23,209 bases of DNA, taken from Escherichia coli (GTDB lineage: Bacteria; Pseudomonadota; Gammaproteobacteria; Enterobacterales; Enterobacteriaceae). The stretch lies in the NCBI RefSeq assembly GCF_003334355.1, contig NZ_QOWP01000045.1. One strand, 5' to 3'. A program made the translations under genes and the position numbers. Positions 74-18,234 of this stretch are shown one piece after another (position 1 is the first letter of the stretch; each line of letters opens with the position of its first letter). The notes below the pieces were generated by a model. That model did not search any database, was not told where the DNA came from, and was given only the letters and a program-made list of their open reading frames with translations.

Positions 74-1249
74 TCAATATCGGTTTCTGTCAGCGATTAA
101 ATTCAACACCACGTAACAAACGCCTCCGGCAATTAATCCCCAAAACGCAGAACCAATCCCGACCAGCGTCAATCCACTTGCCGTTACCAGAAATGCCACC
201 ACCGCCGCGTCGCGCTCACGCTCATTATGCAGCGCCTGATACAAACTGCCGCCAATGGTACTCAACAGCGCCAGACCTGCCAGCATCTGGATCCAACTTA
301 CGGGCAGGGCAGCCATCATCCCGGTAATGGCACTACCAAACAGACCTGCGAGCAAATAGAAAATGCCTGCAACGGCAGCGGCCAGCCAACGTTGATCTTT
401 ATCCGGATGCGCTTCCGGGCTTTGGCAAATAGCCGCGGTGATTGCCGCAATCCCGACGGAATAAACGCCGAAAGGGGAAAAAACCAGTGCCAGCAATCCA
501 GTAAATACAATTAATGGCGAAACAGGAGCCGAATATCCGGCTGCTTTCATTGCTGCGATACCCGGTGCGTTTTGCGATGCCATCGTCACCAGAAAAAGGG
601 GGAGTGCAACGCTCAGGCTGTGAGCAAACGAAAAATCAGGGGTAATATAAGTGGGGAGAACGGGTTTAAAGACAACATCAGTTGTGACAACGTCACCTTG
701 CGCGATAACGATCACGATCCCAATAATCATCGCGGCAATTACCGCATAGCGCGGCGTAACAGCCTTGGTTGCCAGCCATACCAGCAACATACTTCCACAC
801 AACGTAAATTGACCGTCCAGACTGGCAAACGCCTGTAAACCAAAGCGTAATAAAATCCCGGCAAGCATTGCCGCCGCAAGCGAGTGCGGAATAATGCGCA
901 TCAGACGAGCAAAGAGTCCCGTTATGCCGCAGAGGACTATTAACGCGTTGGTGACAATAAAAACGCCGATGGCTTCGTTAAGTGTTAGTCCCTGCAATCC
1001 GGTGACCAACAAAGCCGCGCCAGGCGTTGACCATGCGGTGAGAACAGGTACGCGATACCATAATGTCAGAGTCAGCGTACTGACGCCCATTGCCAGCCCC
1101 AGCGCCGTCATCCAGCCAGAGATTTGTGCAGTGGTGGCTCCGGCGACAATCGCTGCTTGCCAGATTATTGCCGCTGAACTGGCGTAGCCAATTAATACCG
1201 CCAGAAACCCCGCCAGTAGCGTGGGTGGAGGAATAGAAAACAGACGCAT
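74..1249 (-). CDS. ydcO: BenE-family (benzoate-type) inner-membrane transporter, 391 aa
   Basis: Minus-strand ORF (track 74..1510). The translation is a very hydrophobic multi-TM protein that I recognise as YdcO/BenE family. Start placed at the internal ATG at 1249 (MRLFSIPP...), which has GAGGTG just upstream; the longer track start would overlap the divergent ydcN start. Stop TGA at 74-76. Confidence 0.85.
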   Translation of the reverse strand: MRLFSIPPPTLLAGFLAVLIGYASSAAIIWQAAIVAGATTAQISGWMTALGLAMGVSTLTLTLWYRVPVLTAWSTPGAALLVTGLQGLTLNEAIGVFIVTNALIVLCGITGLFARLMRIIPHSLAAAMLAGILLRFGLQAFASLDGQFTLCGSMLLVWLATKAVTPRYAVIAAMIIGIVIVIAQGDVVTTDVVFKPVLPTYITPDFSFAHSLSVALPLFLVTMASQNAPGIAAMKAAGYSAPVSPLIVFTGLLALVFSPFGVYSVGIAAITAAICQSPEAHPDKDQRWLAAAVAGIFYLLAGLFGSAITGMMAALPVSWIQMLAGLALLSTIGGSLYQALHNERERDAAVVAFLVTASGLTLVGIGSAFWGLIAGGVCYVVLNLIADRNRY

Positions 1250-1258
1250 AGTCACCTC

Positions 1259-1306
1259 GTGCGTTATAGCGTACAGGCACCGTAGCATTTGTCCGTTATA
1301 ACGCAC
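1259..1306. promoter_or_regulatory. Perfect 10-bp inverted repeat (GTGCGTTATA ... TATAACGCAC) in the ydcO/ydcN divergent promoter region; candidate operator
   Basis: Read directly: GTGCGTTATA at 1259-1268 and its exact reverse complement TATAACGCAC at 1297-1306, 28 bp apart, between the ydcO start (1249) and ydcN start (1341). That it is an operator is inference. Confidence 0.4.
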
Positions 1307-1340
1307 AAGTGATAAACTTCCGTTTTGCCGGAGGAGTCGC

Positions 1341-1877
1341 ATGGAAAATCTCGCTCGCTTTTTATCCACCACACTTAAACAACTACGCCAGCAGCGCGGC
1401 TGGAGTCTTTCGCGACTGGCAGAAGCGACGGGCGTTTCTAAAGCAATGTTAGGGCAGATTGAGCGTAATGAGTCCAGTCCGACGGTCGCGACATTATGGA
1501 AAATTGCCACCGGGTTGAACGTACCATTTTCAACATTTATTTCTCCGCCGCAGTCCGCTACGCCTTCAGTTTATGATCCACAACAGCAGGCGATGGTGAT
1601 CACTTCGCTGTTTCCTTATGATCCACAACTCTGCTTTGAACACTTCTCGATTCAGATGGCATCTGGTGCAATAAGCGAATCGACGCCCCATGAGAAGGGG
1701 GTAATCGAACATGTCGTCGTCATTGATGGACAACTTGATCTGTGCGTTGATGGGGAATGGCAGACCCTTAATTGTGGGGAAGGCGTTCGATTTGCTGCAG
1801 ACGTCACGCATATCTATCGTAATGGTGGGGAGCAAACCGTACATTTTCATTCCCTCATCCATTACCCGCGCAGTTAA
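1341..1877 (+). CDS. ydcN: XRE-family HTH transcriptional regulator with C-terminal cupin-like domain, 178 aa
   Basis: ORF 1341..1877 with ATG preceded by GGAGG (1331-1335). The N-terminus (LSTTLKQLRQQRGWSLSRLAEATGVSKAMLGQIERNESSPTVATLWKIATGLNV) is a typical XRE/Cro helix-turn-helix. Divergent from ydcO. Confidence 0.85.
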   Translation: MENLARFLSTTLKQLRQQRGWSLSRLAEATGVSKAMLGQIERNESSPTVATLWKIATGLNVPFSTFISPPQSATPSVYDPQQQAMVITSLFPYDPQLCFEHFSIQMASGAISESTPHEKGVIEHVVVIDGQLDLCVDGEWQTLNCGEGVRFAADVTHIYRNGGEQTVHFHSLIHYPRS

Positions 1878-1949
1878 GCGGGAAAACTATTTCGCAACGT
1901 CGCGCTTGTGGCTAAAATAGCCGCCATTTTTCAGCTACTGGATAAGAAT

Positions 1950-3911
1950 GTGACCGTATCTTCTCATCGACTTGAACTGTTAAGCCCGGCACGCGATGCC
2001 GCCATTGCCCGCGAAGCTATTTTGCACGGTGCCGATGCTGTTTATATCGGCGGCCCTGGTTTTGGTGCCCGTCATAATGCCAGTAATAGCCTGAAAGATA
2101 TTGCCGAGCTGGTGCCGTTTGCCCATCGTTATGGTGCAAAAATTTTCGTCACGCTTAACACCATTTTGCATGATGATGAGCTGGAACCCGCGCAACGGCT
2201 GATTACTGACCTCTACCAGACCGGTGTCGATGCGCTGATTGTTCAGGATATGGGGATTCTGGAACTTGATATTCCGCCGATTGAACTGCACGCCAGTACG
2301 CAGTGCGACATTCGTACAGTAGAAAAAGCGAAGTTCCTCTCTGATGTTGGCTTCACGCAGATTGTGCTGGCGCGAGAGCTGAATCTTGAGCAGATCCGCG
2401 CGATTCACCAGGCTACGGACGCGACCATTGAATTCTTTATTCATGGGGCACTGTGCGTGGCCTATTCGGGTCAGTGCTACATTTCTCATGCGCAAACAGG
2501 GCGTAGCGCCAACCGTGGCGATTGCTCGCAGGCGTGCCGTTTGCCATACACATTGAAAGACGATCAGGGGCGGGTGGTTTCCTATGAAAAACATCTGCTG
2601 TCGATGAAAGATAACGATCAGACTGCCAACCTCGGCGCGCTGATTGATGCTGGTGTACGCTCCTTCAAGATTGAAGGGCGTTACAAAGATATGAGCTACG
2701 TGAAGAATATCACCGCCCATTATCGCCAGATGCTTGATGCCATTATTGAAGGCCGTGGCGATCTGGCGCGCGCTTCATCAGGTCGTACTGAACATTTCTT
2801 TGTTCCATCGACGGAAAAGACTTTCCACCGTGGTAGCACAGATTATTTTGTGAATGCCCGTAAAGGCGATATTGGCGCGTTCGATTCGCCGAAATTTATC
2901 GGCCTGCCGGTAGGCGAAGTATTGAAAGTGGCGAAAGATCATCTCGATGTCGCCGTTACCGAGCCACTGGCAAATGGCGATGGCCTGAACGTGTTGATTA
3001 AACGTGAAGTCGTCGGTTTTCGTGCCAATACGGTCGAGAAAACCGGAGAAAATCAGTACCGCGTCTGGCCCAATGAAATGCCAGCAGATTTGCACAAAAT
3101 TCGTCCACATCACCCACTAAACCGTAATCTTGATCATAACTGGCAGCAGGCACTGACAAAAACCTCCAGCGAACGTCGGGTGGCGGTAGACATTGAACTG
3201 GGCGGCTGGCAGGAACAACTGATTCTGACCCTCACCAGTGAAGAGGGTGTCAGCATCACGCATACGCTGGACGGGCAGTTCGACGAAGCCAATAACGCCG
3301 AAAAAGCAATGAACAATCTGAAGGATGGTCTGGCAAAACTGGGGCAAACCCTCTATTACGCCCGCGATGTGCAAATTAATTTGCCGGGGGCGCTGTTTGT
3401 ACCAAACAGTCTGTTAAACCAGTTCCGCCGTGAAGCTGCTGACATGCTGGATGCTGCGCGTCTTGCCAGTTACCAGCGCGGCAGCCGTAAACCGGTTGCT
3501 GATCCTGCGCCGGTTTATCCGCAAACGCATCTGAGTTTCCTCGCGAACGTATACAACCAGAAAGCGCGTGAATTTTATCATCGCTATGGTGTGCAGCTGA
3601 TTGACGCGGCGTATGAAGCACATGAAGAGAAGGGCGAAGTCCCGGTGATGATCACCAAGCATTGTCTGCGCTTTGCCTTTAATCTGTGCCCGAAACAGGC
3701 GAAAGGCAATATCAAAAGCTGGAAGGCGACGCCAATGCAACTGGTTAACGGCGATGAAGTATTAACGCTAAAGTTTGATTGCCGCCCATGCGAGATGCAC
3801 GTCATTGGCAAAATCAAAAATCACATACTGAAAATGCCGTTACCGGGAAGCGTAGTGGCATCCGTAAGTCCGGATGAGCTGCTGAAAACATTGCCTAAGC
3901 GAAAAGGGTAA
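1950..3911 (+). CDS. ydcP: Peptidase U32 family protein (YdcP/RlhA-like), about 653 aa
   Basis: Long ORF (track 1908..3911, GTG at 1908). U32-like N-terminal region (LELLSPARD..., GADAVYIGG...) and conserved Cys-containing segments. Start is uncertain: in-frame GTG at 1950 would give the 653 aa I recall for YdcP, GTG at 1908 gives 667 aa; no in-frame ATG near the 5' end. Confidence 0.8.
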   Translation: MTVSSHRLELLSPARDAAIAREAILHGADAVYIGGPGFGARHNASNSLKDIAELVPFAHRYGAKIFVTLNTILHDDELEPAQRLITDLYQTGVDALIVQDMGILELDIPPIELHASTQCDIRTVEKAKFLSDVGFTQIVLARELNLEQIRAIHQATDATIEFFIHGALCVAYSGQCYISHAQTGRSANRGDCSQACRLPYTLKDDQGRVVSYEKHLLSMKDNDQTANLGALIDAGVRSFKIEGRYKDMSYVKNITAHYRQMLDAIIEGRGDLARASSGRTEHFFVPSTEKTFHRGSTDYFVNARKGDIGAFDSPKFIGLPVGEVLKVAKDHLDVAVTEPLANGDGLNVLIKREVVGFRANTVEKTGENQYRVWPNEMPADLHKIRPHHPLNRNLDHNWQQALTKTSSERRVAVDIELGGWQEQLILTLTSEEGVSITHTLDGQFDEANNAEKAMNNLKDGLAKLGQTLYYARDVQINLPGALFVPNSLLNQFRREAADMLDAARLASYQRGSRKPVADPAPVYPQTHLSFLANVYNQKAREFYHRYGVQLIDAAYEAHEEKGEVPVMITKHCLRFAFNLCPKQAKGNIKSWKATPMQLVNGDEVLTLKFDCRPCEMHVIGKIKNHILKMPLPGSVVASVSPDELLKTLPKRKG

Positions 3912-3960
3912 AACGCCAGTTTTCTGGTTACTCACAACTCATTGAATCTGCATGATATTG

Positions 3961-3995
3961 CCTGCCGGGTAAGGCGTCACGCCGCATCCGGCAAC
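3961..3995. repeat. REP (repetitive extragenic palindrome) element between convergent ydcP and yncJ
   Basis: Sequence CCTGCCGGGTAAGGCGTCACGCCGCATCCGGCAAC has the characteristic enterobacterial REP core (GCCGGATGCGGCGTGA...CCGGCAGG on the opposite strand) and sits in the 3' gap between two convergent genes. Confidence 0.6.
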
Positions 3996-4002
3996 AAATG
4001 AC

Positions 4003-4233
4003 TCAACGTTGTCCCGCTTCTGGTTTGCGCGATTTTTGCCAGTAAAAATGCTCGCGCAAACCTTCCGCCGACTCTTCCGCCACAGCACGCAATTCATCGC
4101 TGTCCGCTTCATGGCGCAGCTGATGATCCACATTCTTTACCCACACAAATTCATGTCCTTTGTGCCCTGCCATGAGTTGTCCTGAGAACAGCGCACACGT
4201 TAATAAGACAACCGATAACGCCTTCGTAAACAT
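4003..4233 (-). CDS. yncJ: Small secreted/periplasmic protein with N-terminal signal peptide (DUF2554-like), 76 aa
   Basis: ORF 4003..4233 minus. ATG at 4233 is preceded by an AGGTGG RBS on the minus strand. N-terminus MFTKALSVVLLTCALFSGQLMA is a classic signal peptide. Matches YncJ from memory. Confidence 0.75.
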   Translation of the reverse strand: MFTKALSVVLLTCALFSGQLMAGHKGHEFVWVKNVDHQLRHEADSDELRAVAEESAEGLREHFYWQKSRKPEAGQR

Positions 4234-4405
4234 CCTGCCACCTTTTTCTTACCTTTTGCCGCTATGATGCCGATCGTTTCTTGAGGTTATTATTCAGTTT
4301 TGCAAATTAGCGCAAAGAAATTCTGGAATCTTCCTTCCTGATTTTGCATGGCATTCTGCCGTTGCGGCGATTTAGTGCTATTTTCGAGCAAATTACACAC
4401 GGAGG

Positions 4406-4423
4406 TAAACACTAATGTTTACT
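4406..4423. promoter_or_regulatory. Palindrome GTAAACA-cta-ATGTTTAC upstream of hicA; candidate HicB operator
   Basis: Read directly: GTAAACA (4406-4412) and TGTTTAC (4417-4423) are reverse complements, about 35-50 bp upstream of the hicA start. The operator role is inference from known autoregulation of type II TA operons. Confidence 0.3.
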
Positions 4424-4454
4424 TTGTTGATATACTCAGCGGCAGGGAGGCGAT

Positions 4455-4631
4455 GTGAAACAAAGCGAGTTCAGACGTTGGCTCGAATCTCAGGGCGTCG
4501 ATGTAGCGAATGGCAGCAACCATTTGAAACTCAGGTTTCATGGGAGGCGCAGTGTCATGCCGCGTCACCCTTGCGATGAGATTAAAGAACCATTGCGTAA
4601 AGCAATCCTGAAACAACTCGGTTTGAGTTAA
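4455..4631 (+). CDS. hicA: HicA toxin (mRNA interferase) of the HicAB type II toxin-antitoxin system, 58 aa
   Basis: GTG start at 4455 preceded by GGGAGG (4445-4450); stop TAA 4629-4631. Translation MKQSEFRRWLESQGVDVANGSNHLKLRFHGRRSVMPRHPCDEIKEPLRKAILKQLGLS is the HicA dsRBD-like toxin. Below the 60 aa track cut-off, so not in the ORF list. Confidence 0.85.
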   Translation: MKQSEFRRWLESQGVDVANGSNHLKLRFHGRRSVMPRHPCDEIKEPLRKAILKQLGLS

Positions 4632-4655
4632 TCGCCAATTAAAAAGGTTAATGAC

Positions 4656-5093
<438 letters not shown>

Positions 5094-16131: not shown

Positions 16132-18234
16132 TTACTCAAATCTCCACGCAATATTCATGCCGACACCATAATTTCGTCCGGGCGAAGGTTCGTAATATCG
16201 CCCGTTTGACTCATTGACAATGACAGAACCAACGTATTCTTTATCGAATAAATTATCGACACGACCAAATAAATCCACAGTTAAATTGTGGTAATTGTAT
16301 TTATACCCGGTGAATAAGCCGACGAGAGTATAAGACGGCGCTTTTGCCGTATTTTCATCATCTGCCATAATATCGCCCATATAACGCGCTTCCGTGCCTG
16401 CATACCAACCATCTTCCGGTACATAACCTATCGACGCAAAGCCCATATTACGGGCGATCCCTGGCATCCGATTACCGTTACAATCCTGTTCATTGCAAAC
16501 ATTGCTGCGATAGGTCGCATCAAGCCAGGTCCAGGACGCGTTTACGCGAAAATCTCCTGCGAAACGTTGATCCCATGCCAGTTCAGCGCCTTGACGACGG
16601 GTCTTTCCGGCATTTTTGTAAGTCGTACGCCCACCGCTACTGCTATCGACAACAATTTCATCATCAGTGTCGGTCTGAAACAATGCGAGACTAAGCAGCC
16701 CATCACCAATACGCGTTTTACTGCCGATCTCAATTGTATCGTTGGTGGATGGTTTTAAACCTAAGTTCATACCGCTTTGCCCATCAGCACGATAAGACAG
16801 CTCATTAATCGTCGGCGTTTCAAAACCTCGCCCGGCTGCCAGATAGATATTCCAGGCATCGGTCATTGCATATTTTAACGAACCGGCAGGTAGCCATTTA
16901 TGATAACTGGCATCACCGCTGTCATCGCCGTTACCCGGAGTAACGTAATGGTCGTTGGAATCAAACCACACGGAGCTGTAGCGCACGCCAGCATCCAGCG
17001 ACAGTTTTTCGCTCAGCTGCCACTGCGTCTGTAAATAGGGATCGATGTTCCACATCAGATTGCGTTCGTCGCGACGCAACTCACCTTTTTGCCCGTACTC
17101 CGGCATGCCGCTATTCAGGCGGAAGTTATTGTAGCCCTTGCGGTTTTCACTCATGTTTTCGTAGTTCAGGCCGGTAGTGAACGTGACCGGAACGCCCAGT
17201 TCACCACGGTGTGTCCAGCGGCTGTCTATTCCCTGGTAATGGCGTTGCAGGGTAATCACGCCGCCCGCATGTGACGGGTTAAGTTGTGGTGCCATGGGTA
17301 TTGACTGGTACTGGGTCGTTTCTCGCTCTCCGGCATACATCATCACACTCATATCATCCCGCGAACTCAGGCTACGTTCATAGCGCAACCCAGCCTGAGT
17401 TTGCTTGATGGTTTTTCGCGTGTCGTACTGTTCTGCACGAGGCGCTTGTTGTGGATTCGCCTTCCATTCTGCTTTGGTTAGCCCACCTGGGTCATCTGCT
17501 TTGATATCCACACTATTGAAAATCAGGCTTAATTTGCTGGCTTCATCAATGCGTACGCCCAGTTTGGCATTGGCTAAATTTTTCTGTGCGCCACTATGGT
17601 CACGATAGCCGTGGGTCGTAAAACGCGTGGTTGAGACGGTGTAATCAACATCGCCGGGTTGTGTGCCGTCTCCCGTTGCGCCCGTTGCTTTCAGCCCATA
17701 GCGCCAGCTGCCAAAACTGCCGTAGTAACTACTGGCTTCAATGGTTGGTGGCTGTTGTCCGGTCTGGGTGGTGACATTCATTACACCGCCAGACGCGTTG
17801 CCATACAGGGCAGAAAAGGGGCCACGCAGCACTTCCACATTTTGCACACTGCTTAAATCGATGTTGGATGTTTGCCCTTGCCCGTCGGGCATGGTGGCGG
17901 GAATACCGTCCACATACAGGCGAATACCGCGAATTCCGTAAGTGGAGCGGGAGCCAAATCCGCGAATCGACAGCTGTAAATCTTGCGCATAGTTCTGCCG
18001 ATTTTGTACCTGCAAACCAGGCACGCTGGTCAGTGATTCGGACAAGTTAATGCGCGGTGTTGCCAGGCGCATCCCCTCGCCATCCACCACGCTTACTGCT
18101 GCTGGGGTATCCAGTTCTGAAACCACCTGCGGTGCGGCACTGACAATCATGGTTTGTTCATCAGCGGCAAAAACAACGGGGGAAAGGGCAAGTAGTGCGG
18201 GCAAAACGGTCTGTCGGACGGAAAAAATCTTCAT
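16132..18234 (-). CDS. yncD: TonB-dependent outer-membrane receptor, 700 aa
   Basis: Minus-strand ORF with signal peptide (MKIFSVRQTVLPALLALSPVVFAADE), plug-domain motifs and a C-terminal aromatic residue (…NIAWRFE) typical of outer-membrane beta-barrels. Confidence 0.9.
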   Translation of the reverse strand: MKIFSVRQTVLPALLALSPVVFAADEQTMIVSAAPQVVSELDTPAAVSVVDGEGMRLATPRINLSESLTSVPGLQVQNRQNYAQDLQLSIRGFGSRSTYGIRGIRLYVDGIPATMPDGQGQTSNIDLSSVQNVEVLRGPFSALYGNASGGVMNVTTQTGQQPPTIEASSYYGSFGSWRYGLKATGATGDGTQPGDVDYTVSTTRFTTHGYRDHSGAQKNLANAKLGVRIDEASKLSLIFNSVDIKADDPGGLTKAEWKANPQQAPRAEQYDTRKTIKQTQAGLRYERSLSSRDDMSVMMYAGERETTQYQSIPMAPQLNPSHAGGVITLQRHYQGIDSRWTHRGELGVPVTFTTGLNYENMSENRKGYNNFRLNSGMPEYGQKGELRRDERNLMWNIDPYLQTQWQLSEKLSLDAGVRYSSVWFDSNDHYVTPGNGDDSGDASYHKWLPAGSLKYAMTDAWNIYLAAGRGFETPTINELSYRADGQSGMNLGLKPSTNDTIEIGSKTRIGDGLLSLALFQTDTDDEIVVDSSSGGRTTYKNAGKTRRQGAELAWDQRFAGDFRVNASWTWLDATYRSNVCNEQDCNGNRMPGIARNMGFASIGYVPEDGWYAGTEARYMGDIMADDENTAKAPSYTLVGLFTGYKYNYHNLTVDLFGRVDNLFDKEYVGSVIVNESNGRYYEPSPGRNYGVGMNIAWRFE

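Follow-up and report, generated by a model that had tools for sequence, protein, structure and literature searches.

A half BIME-1 element with an imperfect REP head in the gap between the convergent genes rlhA and yncJ of Escherichia coli

The window, i.e., the whole 23,209-nt stretch of E. coli DNA that was analysed, carries the gene order ydcO-sutR-rlhA(ydcP)-yncJ-hicAB-ydcR, which was recognized as an E. coli core locus from the open reading frames and from BLAST against 5,426 complete E. coli genomes. Positions 3912-4002 make up the entire 91-nt gap that separates the convergent genes rlhA and yncJ, from stop codon to stop codon, and the gene names given in an earlier note on this DNA (convergent ydcP and yncJ) agree with the ORFs and the BLAST results. 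A 551-bp query revealed the rlhA-yncJ junction in 5,414 of the 5,426 genomes, with 95-100% identity, which bears out the earlier description of the gap as core-genome DNA. The RefSeq record of K-12 has no REP repeat feature annotated anywhere in it. The features of the gap and its borders are listed in Table 1.

Table 1. Coordinates of the features in and around the rlhA-yncJ gap (window positions).
Feature	Position	Strand	Basis or remark
rlhA (formerly ydcP)	1908-3911	+	ORF and BLAST
rlhA stop codon UAA	3909-3911	+	REP stem starts 51 nt downstream
Small 5-bp hairpin GCCAG-TTTT-CTGGT	3915-3928		just after rlhA stop; -6.1 kcal/mol on +, -4.1 kcal/mol on -; weak
Homologue of the long BIME-1 "L" linker	3931-3959	+	profile alignment; first ~7 nt of the 35-nt linker absent
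IHF-type motif CAACTCATTGAAT	3935-3947	+	sequence and linker alignments
Position of the conserved GTAG head, here GCCT (1 of 4 matching)	3960-3963	+	alignments
y-type REP (palindromic unit), REP orientation	3963-3993	+	consensus, hairpin 1 of Rfam naRNA4, profile, fold
IS1397 insertion point in other strains	3978-3980		duplicated 3 bp of loop and 3' arm: TAC (042, E7-1N7), CAC in the window
yncJ stop codon UGA	4003-4005	-	on the yncJ mRNA, REP stem starts 9 nt downstream
yncJ	4003-4233	-	ORF and BLAST

Differences between strains were also observed in the neighborhood of the gap. Just downstream of yncJ, hicA is absent and hicB is annotated as an N-terminally truncated pseudogene in strains U14A (extracted segment 1013-1150) and E7-1N7 (4406-4483), compared with window positions 4455-5093, where both hicA (4455-4631) and hicB (4656-5093) are intact; the HicAB toxin-antitoxin pair is therefore polymorphic beside the gap. 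On the other side, ydcL and ydcO are separated in K-12 MG1655 by IS609 (insQ, plus the yncK pseudogene; extracted segment 162-1909), ydcL directly adjoins ydcO in E. coli 042 (extracted segment 630-663), and the window begins inside or upstream of ydcO. The mechanical ORF of ydcO at window positions 74-1510 (minus strand) encodes 478 aa when read from a GTG, and 170 nt of it extend over the start of sutR; the K-12 annotation of ydcO is 1,176 nt long (391 aa), and the long window ORF is probably a mere upstream in-frame extension. A 6-bp hairpin, CATCCG-TAAGTC-CGGATG, was found at 3861-3878, within the last codons of rlhA.

The REP proper is a 31-nt imperfect palindrome, TGCCGGGTAAGGCGTCACGCCGCATCCGGCA, positioned between the two stop codons and thus extragenic. 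Its arms (3963-3977 and 3979-3993) are 15 nt each, 80% complementary and 1 nt apart, and form the sole inverted repeat counted as a REP in the gap. The stem reads TGCCGGGT..GGCG / CGCC..ATCCGGCA around a 3-nt TCA loop (3977-3979), and the conserved AA/GC internal mismatch is kept (GGGTAAGGCG / CGCCGCATCC), appearing in the fold as a 2x2 internal loop; this mismatch, or bulge, is a known REP feature that is contacted by the REP transposase TnpA_REP (PMC8266576). When the published canonical E. coli REP consensus, TGCCGGATGCGGCGTAAACGCCTTATCCGGCCTAC (PMC1525189, additional file 15), was compared with the minus strand, 28 of the 31 palindrome positions matched, with one 1-nt gap. The local alignment scored 24, against 13 for the runner-up site in the window and a maximum of 14 over 20 whole-window dinucleotide shuffles. 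The consensus search proposed in the earlier note thus places the REP at 3963-3993 by gapped alignment, and the poor match to consensus that would have spoken against a REP is not what was seen. A fuzzy search with the 31-nt REP core located the same positions with 2-3 errors, whereas an ungapped pattern search with a REP consensus allowing up to 3 mismatches gave no match, because the loop has a 1-nt deletion and the tail is changed.

Further lines of evidence agree with this identity. A profile built from five K-12 BIME-1 elements matched with E = 4e-11. Rfam contains no dedicated REP family, but the first hairpin of its naRNA4 model, a y-type REP, aligned with the second hairpin skipped (28.5 bits, E = 9e-4); at gathering thresholds, Rfam reported no family anywhere in the window. 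Folded as RNA, the hairpin reached -19.6 kcal/mol on the plus strand (z = -4.2) and -16.5 kcal/mol on the minus strand (z = -3.2). A 41-nt query over the REP hit at least 40 places in each of the 5,426 E. coli genomes, and the REP therefore belongs to a dispersed high-copy family. On sequence grounds, 3963-3993 is a member of the REP/BIME-1 repeat family, and as such an ordinary repeat of an already well-known kind. No other REP was detected anywhere in the 23-kb window by consensus alignment, fuzzy core search or profile search.

Elsewhere in the window, TCACGCCGCATGCGGCA at 19582-19645 contains a perfect 12-nt palindrome resembling a REP 3' arm, with weak REP/BIME profile scores. The hairpin GCCCGGC-ACGTA-GCCGGGC followed by AATTTTG at 19614-19645 is likely an intrinsic terminator, located between the convergent ORFs 18476-19537 (plus strand) and 19652-21202 (minus strand).

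The sequence next to the palindrome is also repetitive. A first cue was that the sequence upstream of the gap REP also aligned with the gap downstream of glnQ, which is an unrelated locus. REPs were located by their palindrome cores in about 200-208 kb of K-12 MG1655, and five of those sampled lie in BIME-1 elements, in the order z1 iREP, 35-nt "L" linker and y REP. In an nhmmer search with the profile of these five elements, positions 38-100 of 100 aligned to window positions 3931-3993, i.e., to linker and REP together. A profile of the linker only had its best window match, with E = 0.0013, at 3934-3956, correctly in register with the REP beside it, while a z1 REP profile gave no significant match anywhere in the gap. 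A BIME-1 has two inverse REPs (z1 and y) and a long L linker beside the y REP; the gap holds the linker beside its y REP and lacks the inverse pair. Since linker and y REP match and z1 is absent, the element is, as judged from the alignments, half a BIME-1. The earlier note had described a single REP palindrome standing by itself; the REP is indeed single, but the palindrome is not alone, as the adjacent ~28 nt are BIME-1 L linker. The small hairpin at 3915-3928 was considered as a decayed z1 REP and rejected, having no profile match and no conservation in Escherichia sp. E1V33.

The linker retains a motif of the integration host factor (IHF) type. With YAANNNNTTGATW as the IHF consensus, CAACTCATTGAAT fits 8 of the 9 specified positions, and the fitting positions are the same as those kept in canonical L linkers (CAATATATTGAAT). 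IHF binds BIME-1 linkers (PMC3333891, PMC2817692), and the linker in the gap may still be bound by it; a literature search brought up no binding data for the rlhA-yncJ linker, and the two papers that name both yncJ and IHF are studies of Salmonella. In K-12 the linker region lies near coordinate 1,508,765 of NC_000913.3.

The most conspicuous departure from other REPs lies at the head. The tetranucleotide GTAG immediately 5' of the stem is highly conserved among E. coli REPs (PMC3333891). In 208 kb of K-12, searched without any requirement on the head sequence, GTAG was present in 19 of 19 other REPs, and the exception was K-12's own rlhA-yncJ copy. In place of the GCCT of the window, the head reads GTTG in strains 042, fS10a and 98200, and GTCG in E7-1N7 and in Escherichia sp. 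E1V33, a member of a cryptic clade. As the heads of all these alleles, that of E1V33 included, are imperfect, the common ancestor already lacked a perfect head, and decay has gone further in the lineage that led to the window. The loop is 3 nt long in all alleles, compared with 4 nt in canonical copies. The earlier label "canonical" was therefore too strong for a REP that keeps one of the four GTAG positions and has a loop 1 nt short.

Binding and cleavage by TnpA_REP need both GTAG and the stem mismatch, and the E. coli enzyme neither bound nor cleaved once GTAG carried any substitution (PMC3333891, PMC8266576). A substrate of TnpA_REP (RAYT) combines a GTAG guide and bulge with a CT cleavage site at the partner iREP or linker; in the gap, GTAG and the iREP are absent. 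Given that GTAG is missing and that the E. coli enzyme tolerates no mutation of it, the copy is probably no transposase target and inert for TnpA_REP, and the earlier suggestion that the REP serves as a target of REP-associated transposases probably does not hold for a GCCT head. Owing to the loss of GTAG, we classify the element as a decayed copy related to REPs by descent, rather than as a canonical REP. Such a copy would no longer be bound or cut by TnpA_REP and hence would be an immobile relic.

The arrangement is stable among the alleles compared. Seven aligned E. coli alleles have no indel in the gap, and in Escherichia sp. E1V33 the gap is 92 nt long and organized in the same way. For gap length, 29 full-length rows were taken at even intervals from the ranked list of 5,414 genomes, and all 29 span 550-551 bp. 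No second REP was present in the gap in the seven alleles, in the cryptic-clade Escherichia or in the 29 rows. The proposal that a single REP occupies the gap was thus upheld when related strains were searched for an inverted partner that would complete a BIME, over the seven alleles, E1V33 and 29 of the 5,414 rows. Compared with E1V33, the gap has 11 differences in 92 aligned columns, three of them inside the 31-nt REP. Third-codon-position divergence from E1V33 is 7.8% for yncJ and 24.5% for rlhA; the divergence of the gap lies between these values and therefore gives no sign of special constraint. The stem is paired in every allele: a double change in E1V33 turns an A/G mismatch into a T-A pair, and the change in the U14A allele keeps a G-U pair in the stem. 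Based on these alignments, the REP has been at the rlhA-yncJ site since before E. coli split from the cryptic Escherichia clade. Regarding the range of yncJ itself, a scan of genome contigs with a degenerate yncJ pattern found one locus only, that of Escherichia sp. E1V33, and in the 90% cluster of YncJ, which has 634 members, all of the 15 that were listed are from E. coli.

Two of the 5,414 genomes, E. coli 042 and E7-1N7, have no contiguous rlhA-yncJ junction, and in both a 1,432-bp IS1397 lies between the genes. The junctions, ...GGCCGGGTAAGGCGTTAC / IS1397 / TACGCCGCATCCGGCA..., lie inside the loop of the REP and show a 3-bp duplication, TAC. The two strains share both the nucleotide of insertion and the orientation of IS1397; the window itself has no IS. 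IS1397, a member of the IS3 family, has been shown experimentally to insert specifically into REPs, and a copy in CFT073 occupies the equivalent loop position (PMC1525189, additional file 13). The earlier note had named REPs as IS targets in general, and for the gap REP this is demonstrated rather than hypothetical. The IS1397 copies of 042 and E7-1N7 are 97.8% identical, compared with only 93.5% for the rlhA flanks, and the 042 copy is 99.3% identical to one at another locus in another strain. Because the IS copies are closer than their flanks and the 042 copy is nearest to one located elsewhere, two independent insertions are more likely than one old insertion common to both strains, and the REP loop is probably a recurrent landing site for IS1397.

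One IS1397 copy of E. coli JNE25-003 (extracted segment 2546-3977) was compared with K-12 segments 17589-17621 and 25630-25730. Its left flank is the 5' half of the y REP of the glnQ BIME-1, and its right flank is the 3' half of the z2 REP that adjoins ybiJ in K-12, 8 kb away. The order and strands in JNE25-003 (glnHPQ on the plus strand, IS1397, ybiJ/I/X on the minus strand) are unlike those of K-12, and the arrangement resembles the outcome of an inversion between two copies of IS1397, each inserted in a REP.

The location of the REP relative to the two stop codons bears on the ends of both transcripts. No intrinsic-terminator-like site was found on either strand between 3700 and 4500 (0 found), and a U run is absent after the REP on both sides, the tails being ACAAAUGAC on the plus strand and GGCAAUAUC on the minus strand. 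As the gap has no intrinsic terminator on either strand, transcripts from rlhA and yncJ would likely read through into the REP. REP hairpins in 3' untranslated regions usually block 3'-to-5' exonucleases. Such enzymes would trim both transcripts back to the stable hairpin, which would set the 3' ends of the two convergent mRNAs and shield them. Stabilization of upstream mRNA, as named in the earlier note, is plausible. From this analysis, a 3'-end hairpin shared by two convergent transcripts appears to be the most likely role of the element. Other roles described for REPs include IHF binding and Rho-dependent termination (PMC2817692). Moreover, REPs located no more than 15 nt after a stop codon stall terminating ribosomes (Liang, Rudd and Deutscher 2015, as related in PMC12306157). 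The hairpin on the yncJ mRNA falls inside this range and may for that reason also lower YncJ output. The supplements of PMC12306157 mention neither yncJ nor the K-12 coordinates of the REP, and the literature search found no paper linking yncJ with a REP. A promoter-like site on the minus strand, from 3980 to 3952, was discarded as being at chance level (1 found, 1.0 expected).

Taken together, a decayed half BIME-1, with probable relic status, a likely role at the 3' ends and possible roles in YncJ output and IHF binding, is in our judgment a highly probable account of the gap. That the REP is instead fully functional and mobile, a substrate of RAYT/TnpA_REP as the earlier note implied, has in its favor the intact palindrome and the intact AA/GC mismatch contacted by the enzyme (PMC8266576). 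We consider it very improbable, given a GCCT head and an E. coli enzyme that loses binding and cleavage with any substitution of GTAG, the missing partner iREP that would provide the usual cleavage site, and a position shared by all sampled E. coli and E1V33, hence no sign of recent movement. Even less credible is a gene-specific bidirectional intrinsic terminator of rlhA and yncJ that merely resembles a REP. A stable GC-rich hairpin between convergent genes would suit it, but the T/U run is absent on both sides, the terminator search over 3700-4500 returned nothing, the hairpin belongs to a family of at least 40 copies per genome, and a BIME-1 linker is attached to it.

It is harder to choose between degrees of host use. 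The element may be a neutral relic without any RNA or protein-binding role, which persists since small intergenic hairpins are hard to lose; divergence from E1V33 within the synonymous-site range, the decayed head and the tolerance of hairpin-splitting IS1397 insertions in two strains are all consistent with it. Stem pairing kept in all alleles, through the E1V33 double change and the U14A G-U pair, argues the other way, although these counts are too small to be decisive, as does the general ability of REP hairpins in 3' UTRs to block exonucleases. We regard the neutral relic as possible and on balance unlikely. At the other end, the host could have exapted the copy: the hairpin would stall ribosomes and so tune the small secreted protein YncJ, protect both 3' ends and keep an IHF site. 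The hairpin would then have been retained since before the E. coli split despite loss of the GTAG head and of the partner REP. We hold such an exaptation to be doubtful. The preferred account thus remains the decayed half BIME-1 whose hairpin probably serves transcript ends.

E. coli REPs and BIMEs have been catalogued for decades, and one more core intergenic copy has limited weight by itself. As a REP that lacks the GTAG head and a partner and has kept its hairpin, it is a clean natural case that bears on whether transposase activity or host use lets REPs persist. It also shows, to the nucleotide, how IS1397 has entered one REP loop in two lineages, probably in recurrent insertions, and with its 9-nt spacing yncJ is a candidate for down-regulation of its translation by a REP.

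Compared with known systems, the gap copy shares with naRNA4/REP325 (Rfam RF02564, a BIME-2 transcript) a first hairpin that aligns almost perfectly; it has one of the two hairpins, and its 28.5 bits are below the gathering score of 59.5, so that it is not a member of that family. In position it resembles the ribosome-stalling REPs found up to 15 nt after a stop codon, such as that of nrdAB, in having a hairpin 9 nt past the yncJ stop. In comparison with BIME-1 (RIP/RIB: z1 iREP, L linker carrying an IHF site, y REP), it is missing the z1 iREP together with ~7 nt at the start of the linker; the order and register of linker and y REP are the same, as are the positions of the IHF-type motif. From the E. 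coli y-type REP, or palindromic unit, it differs in having GCCT for GTAG, a loop of 3 nt and not 4, and T rather than G at the first stem position, which adds a T-A pair at the foot. Common to both are the 31-nt palindrome (28 of 31 positions), the AA/GC mismatch, the extragenic 3' location, the high copy number and the use as a target by IS1397.
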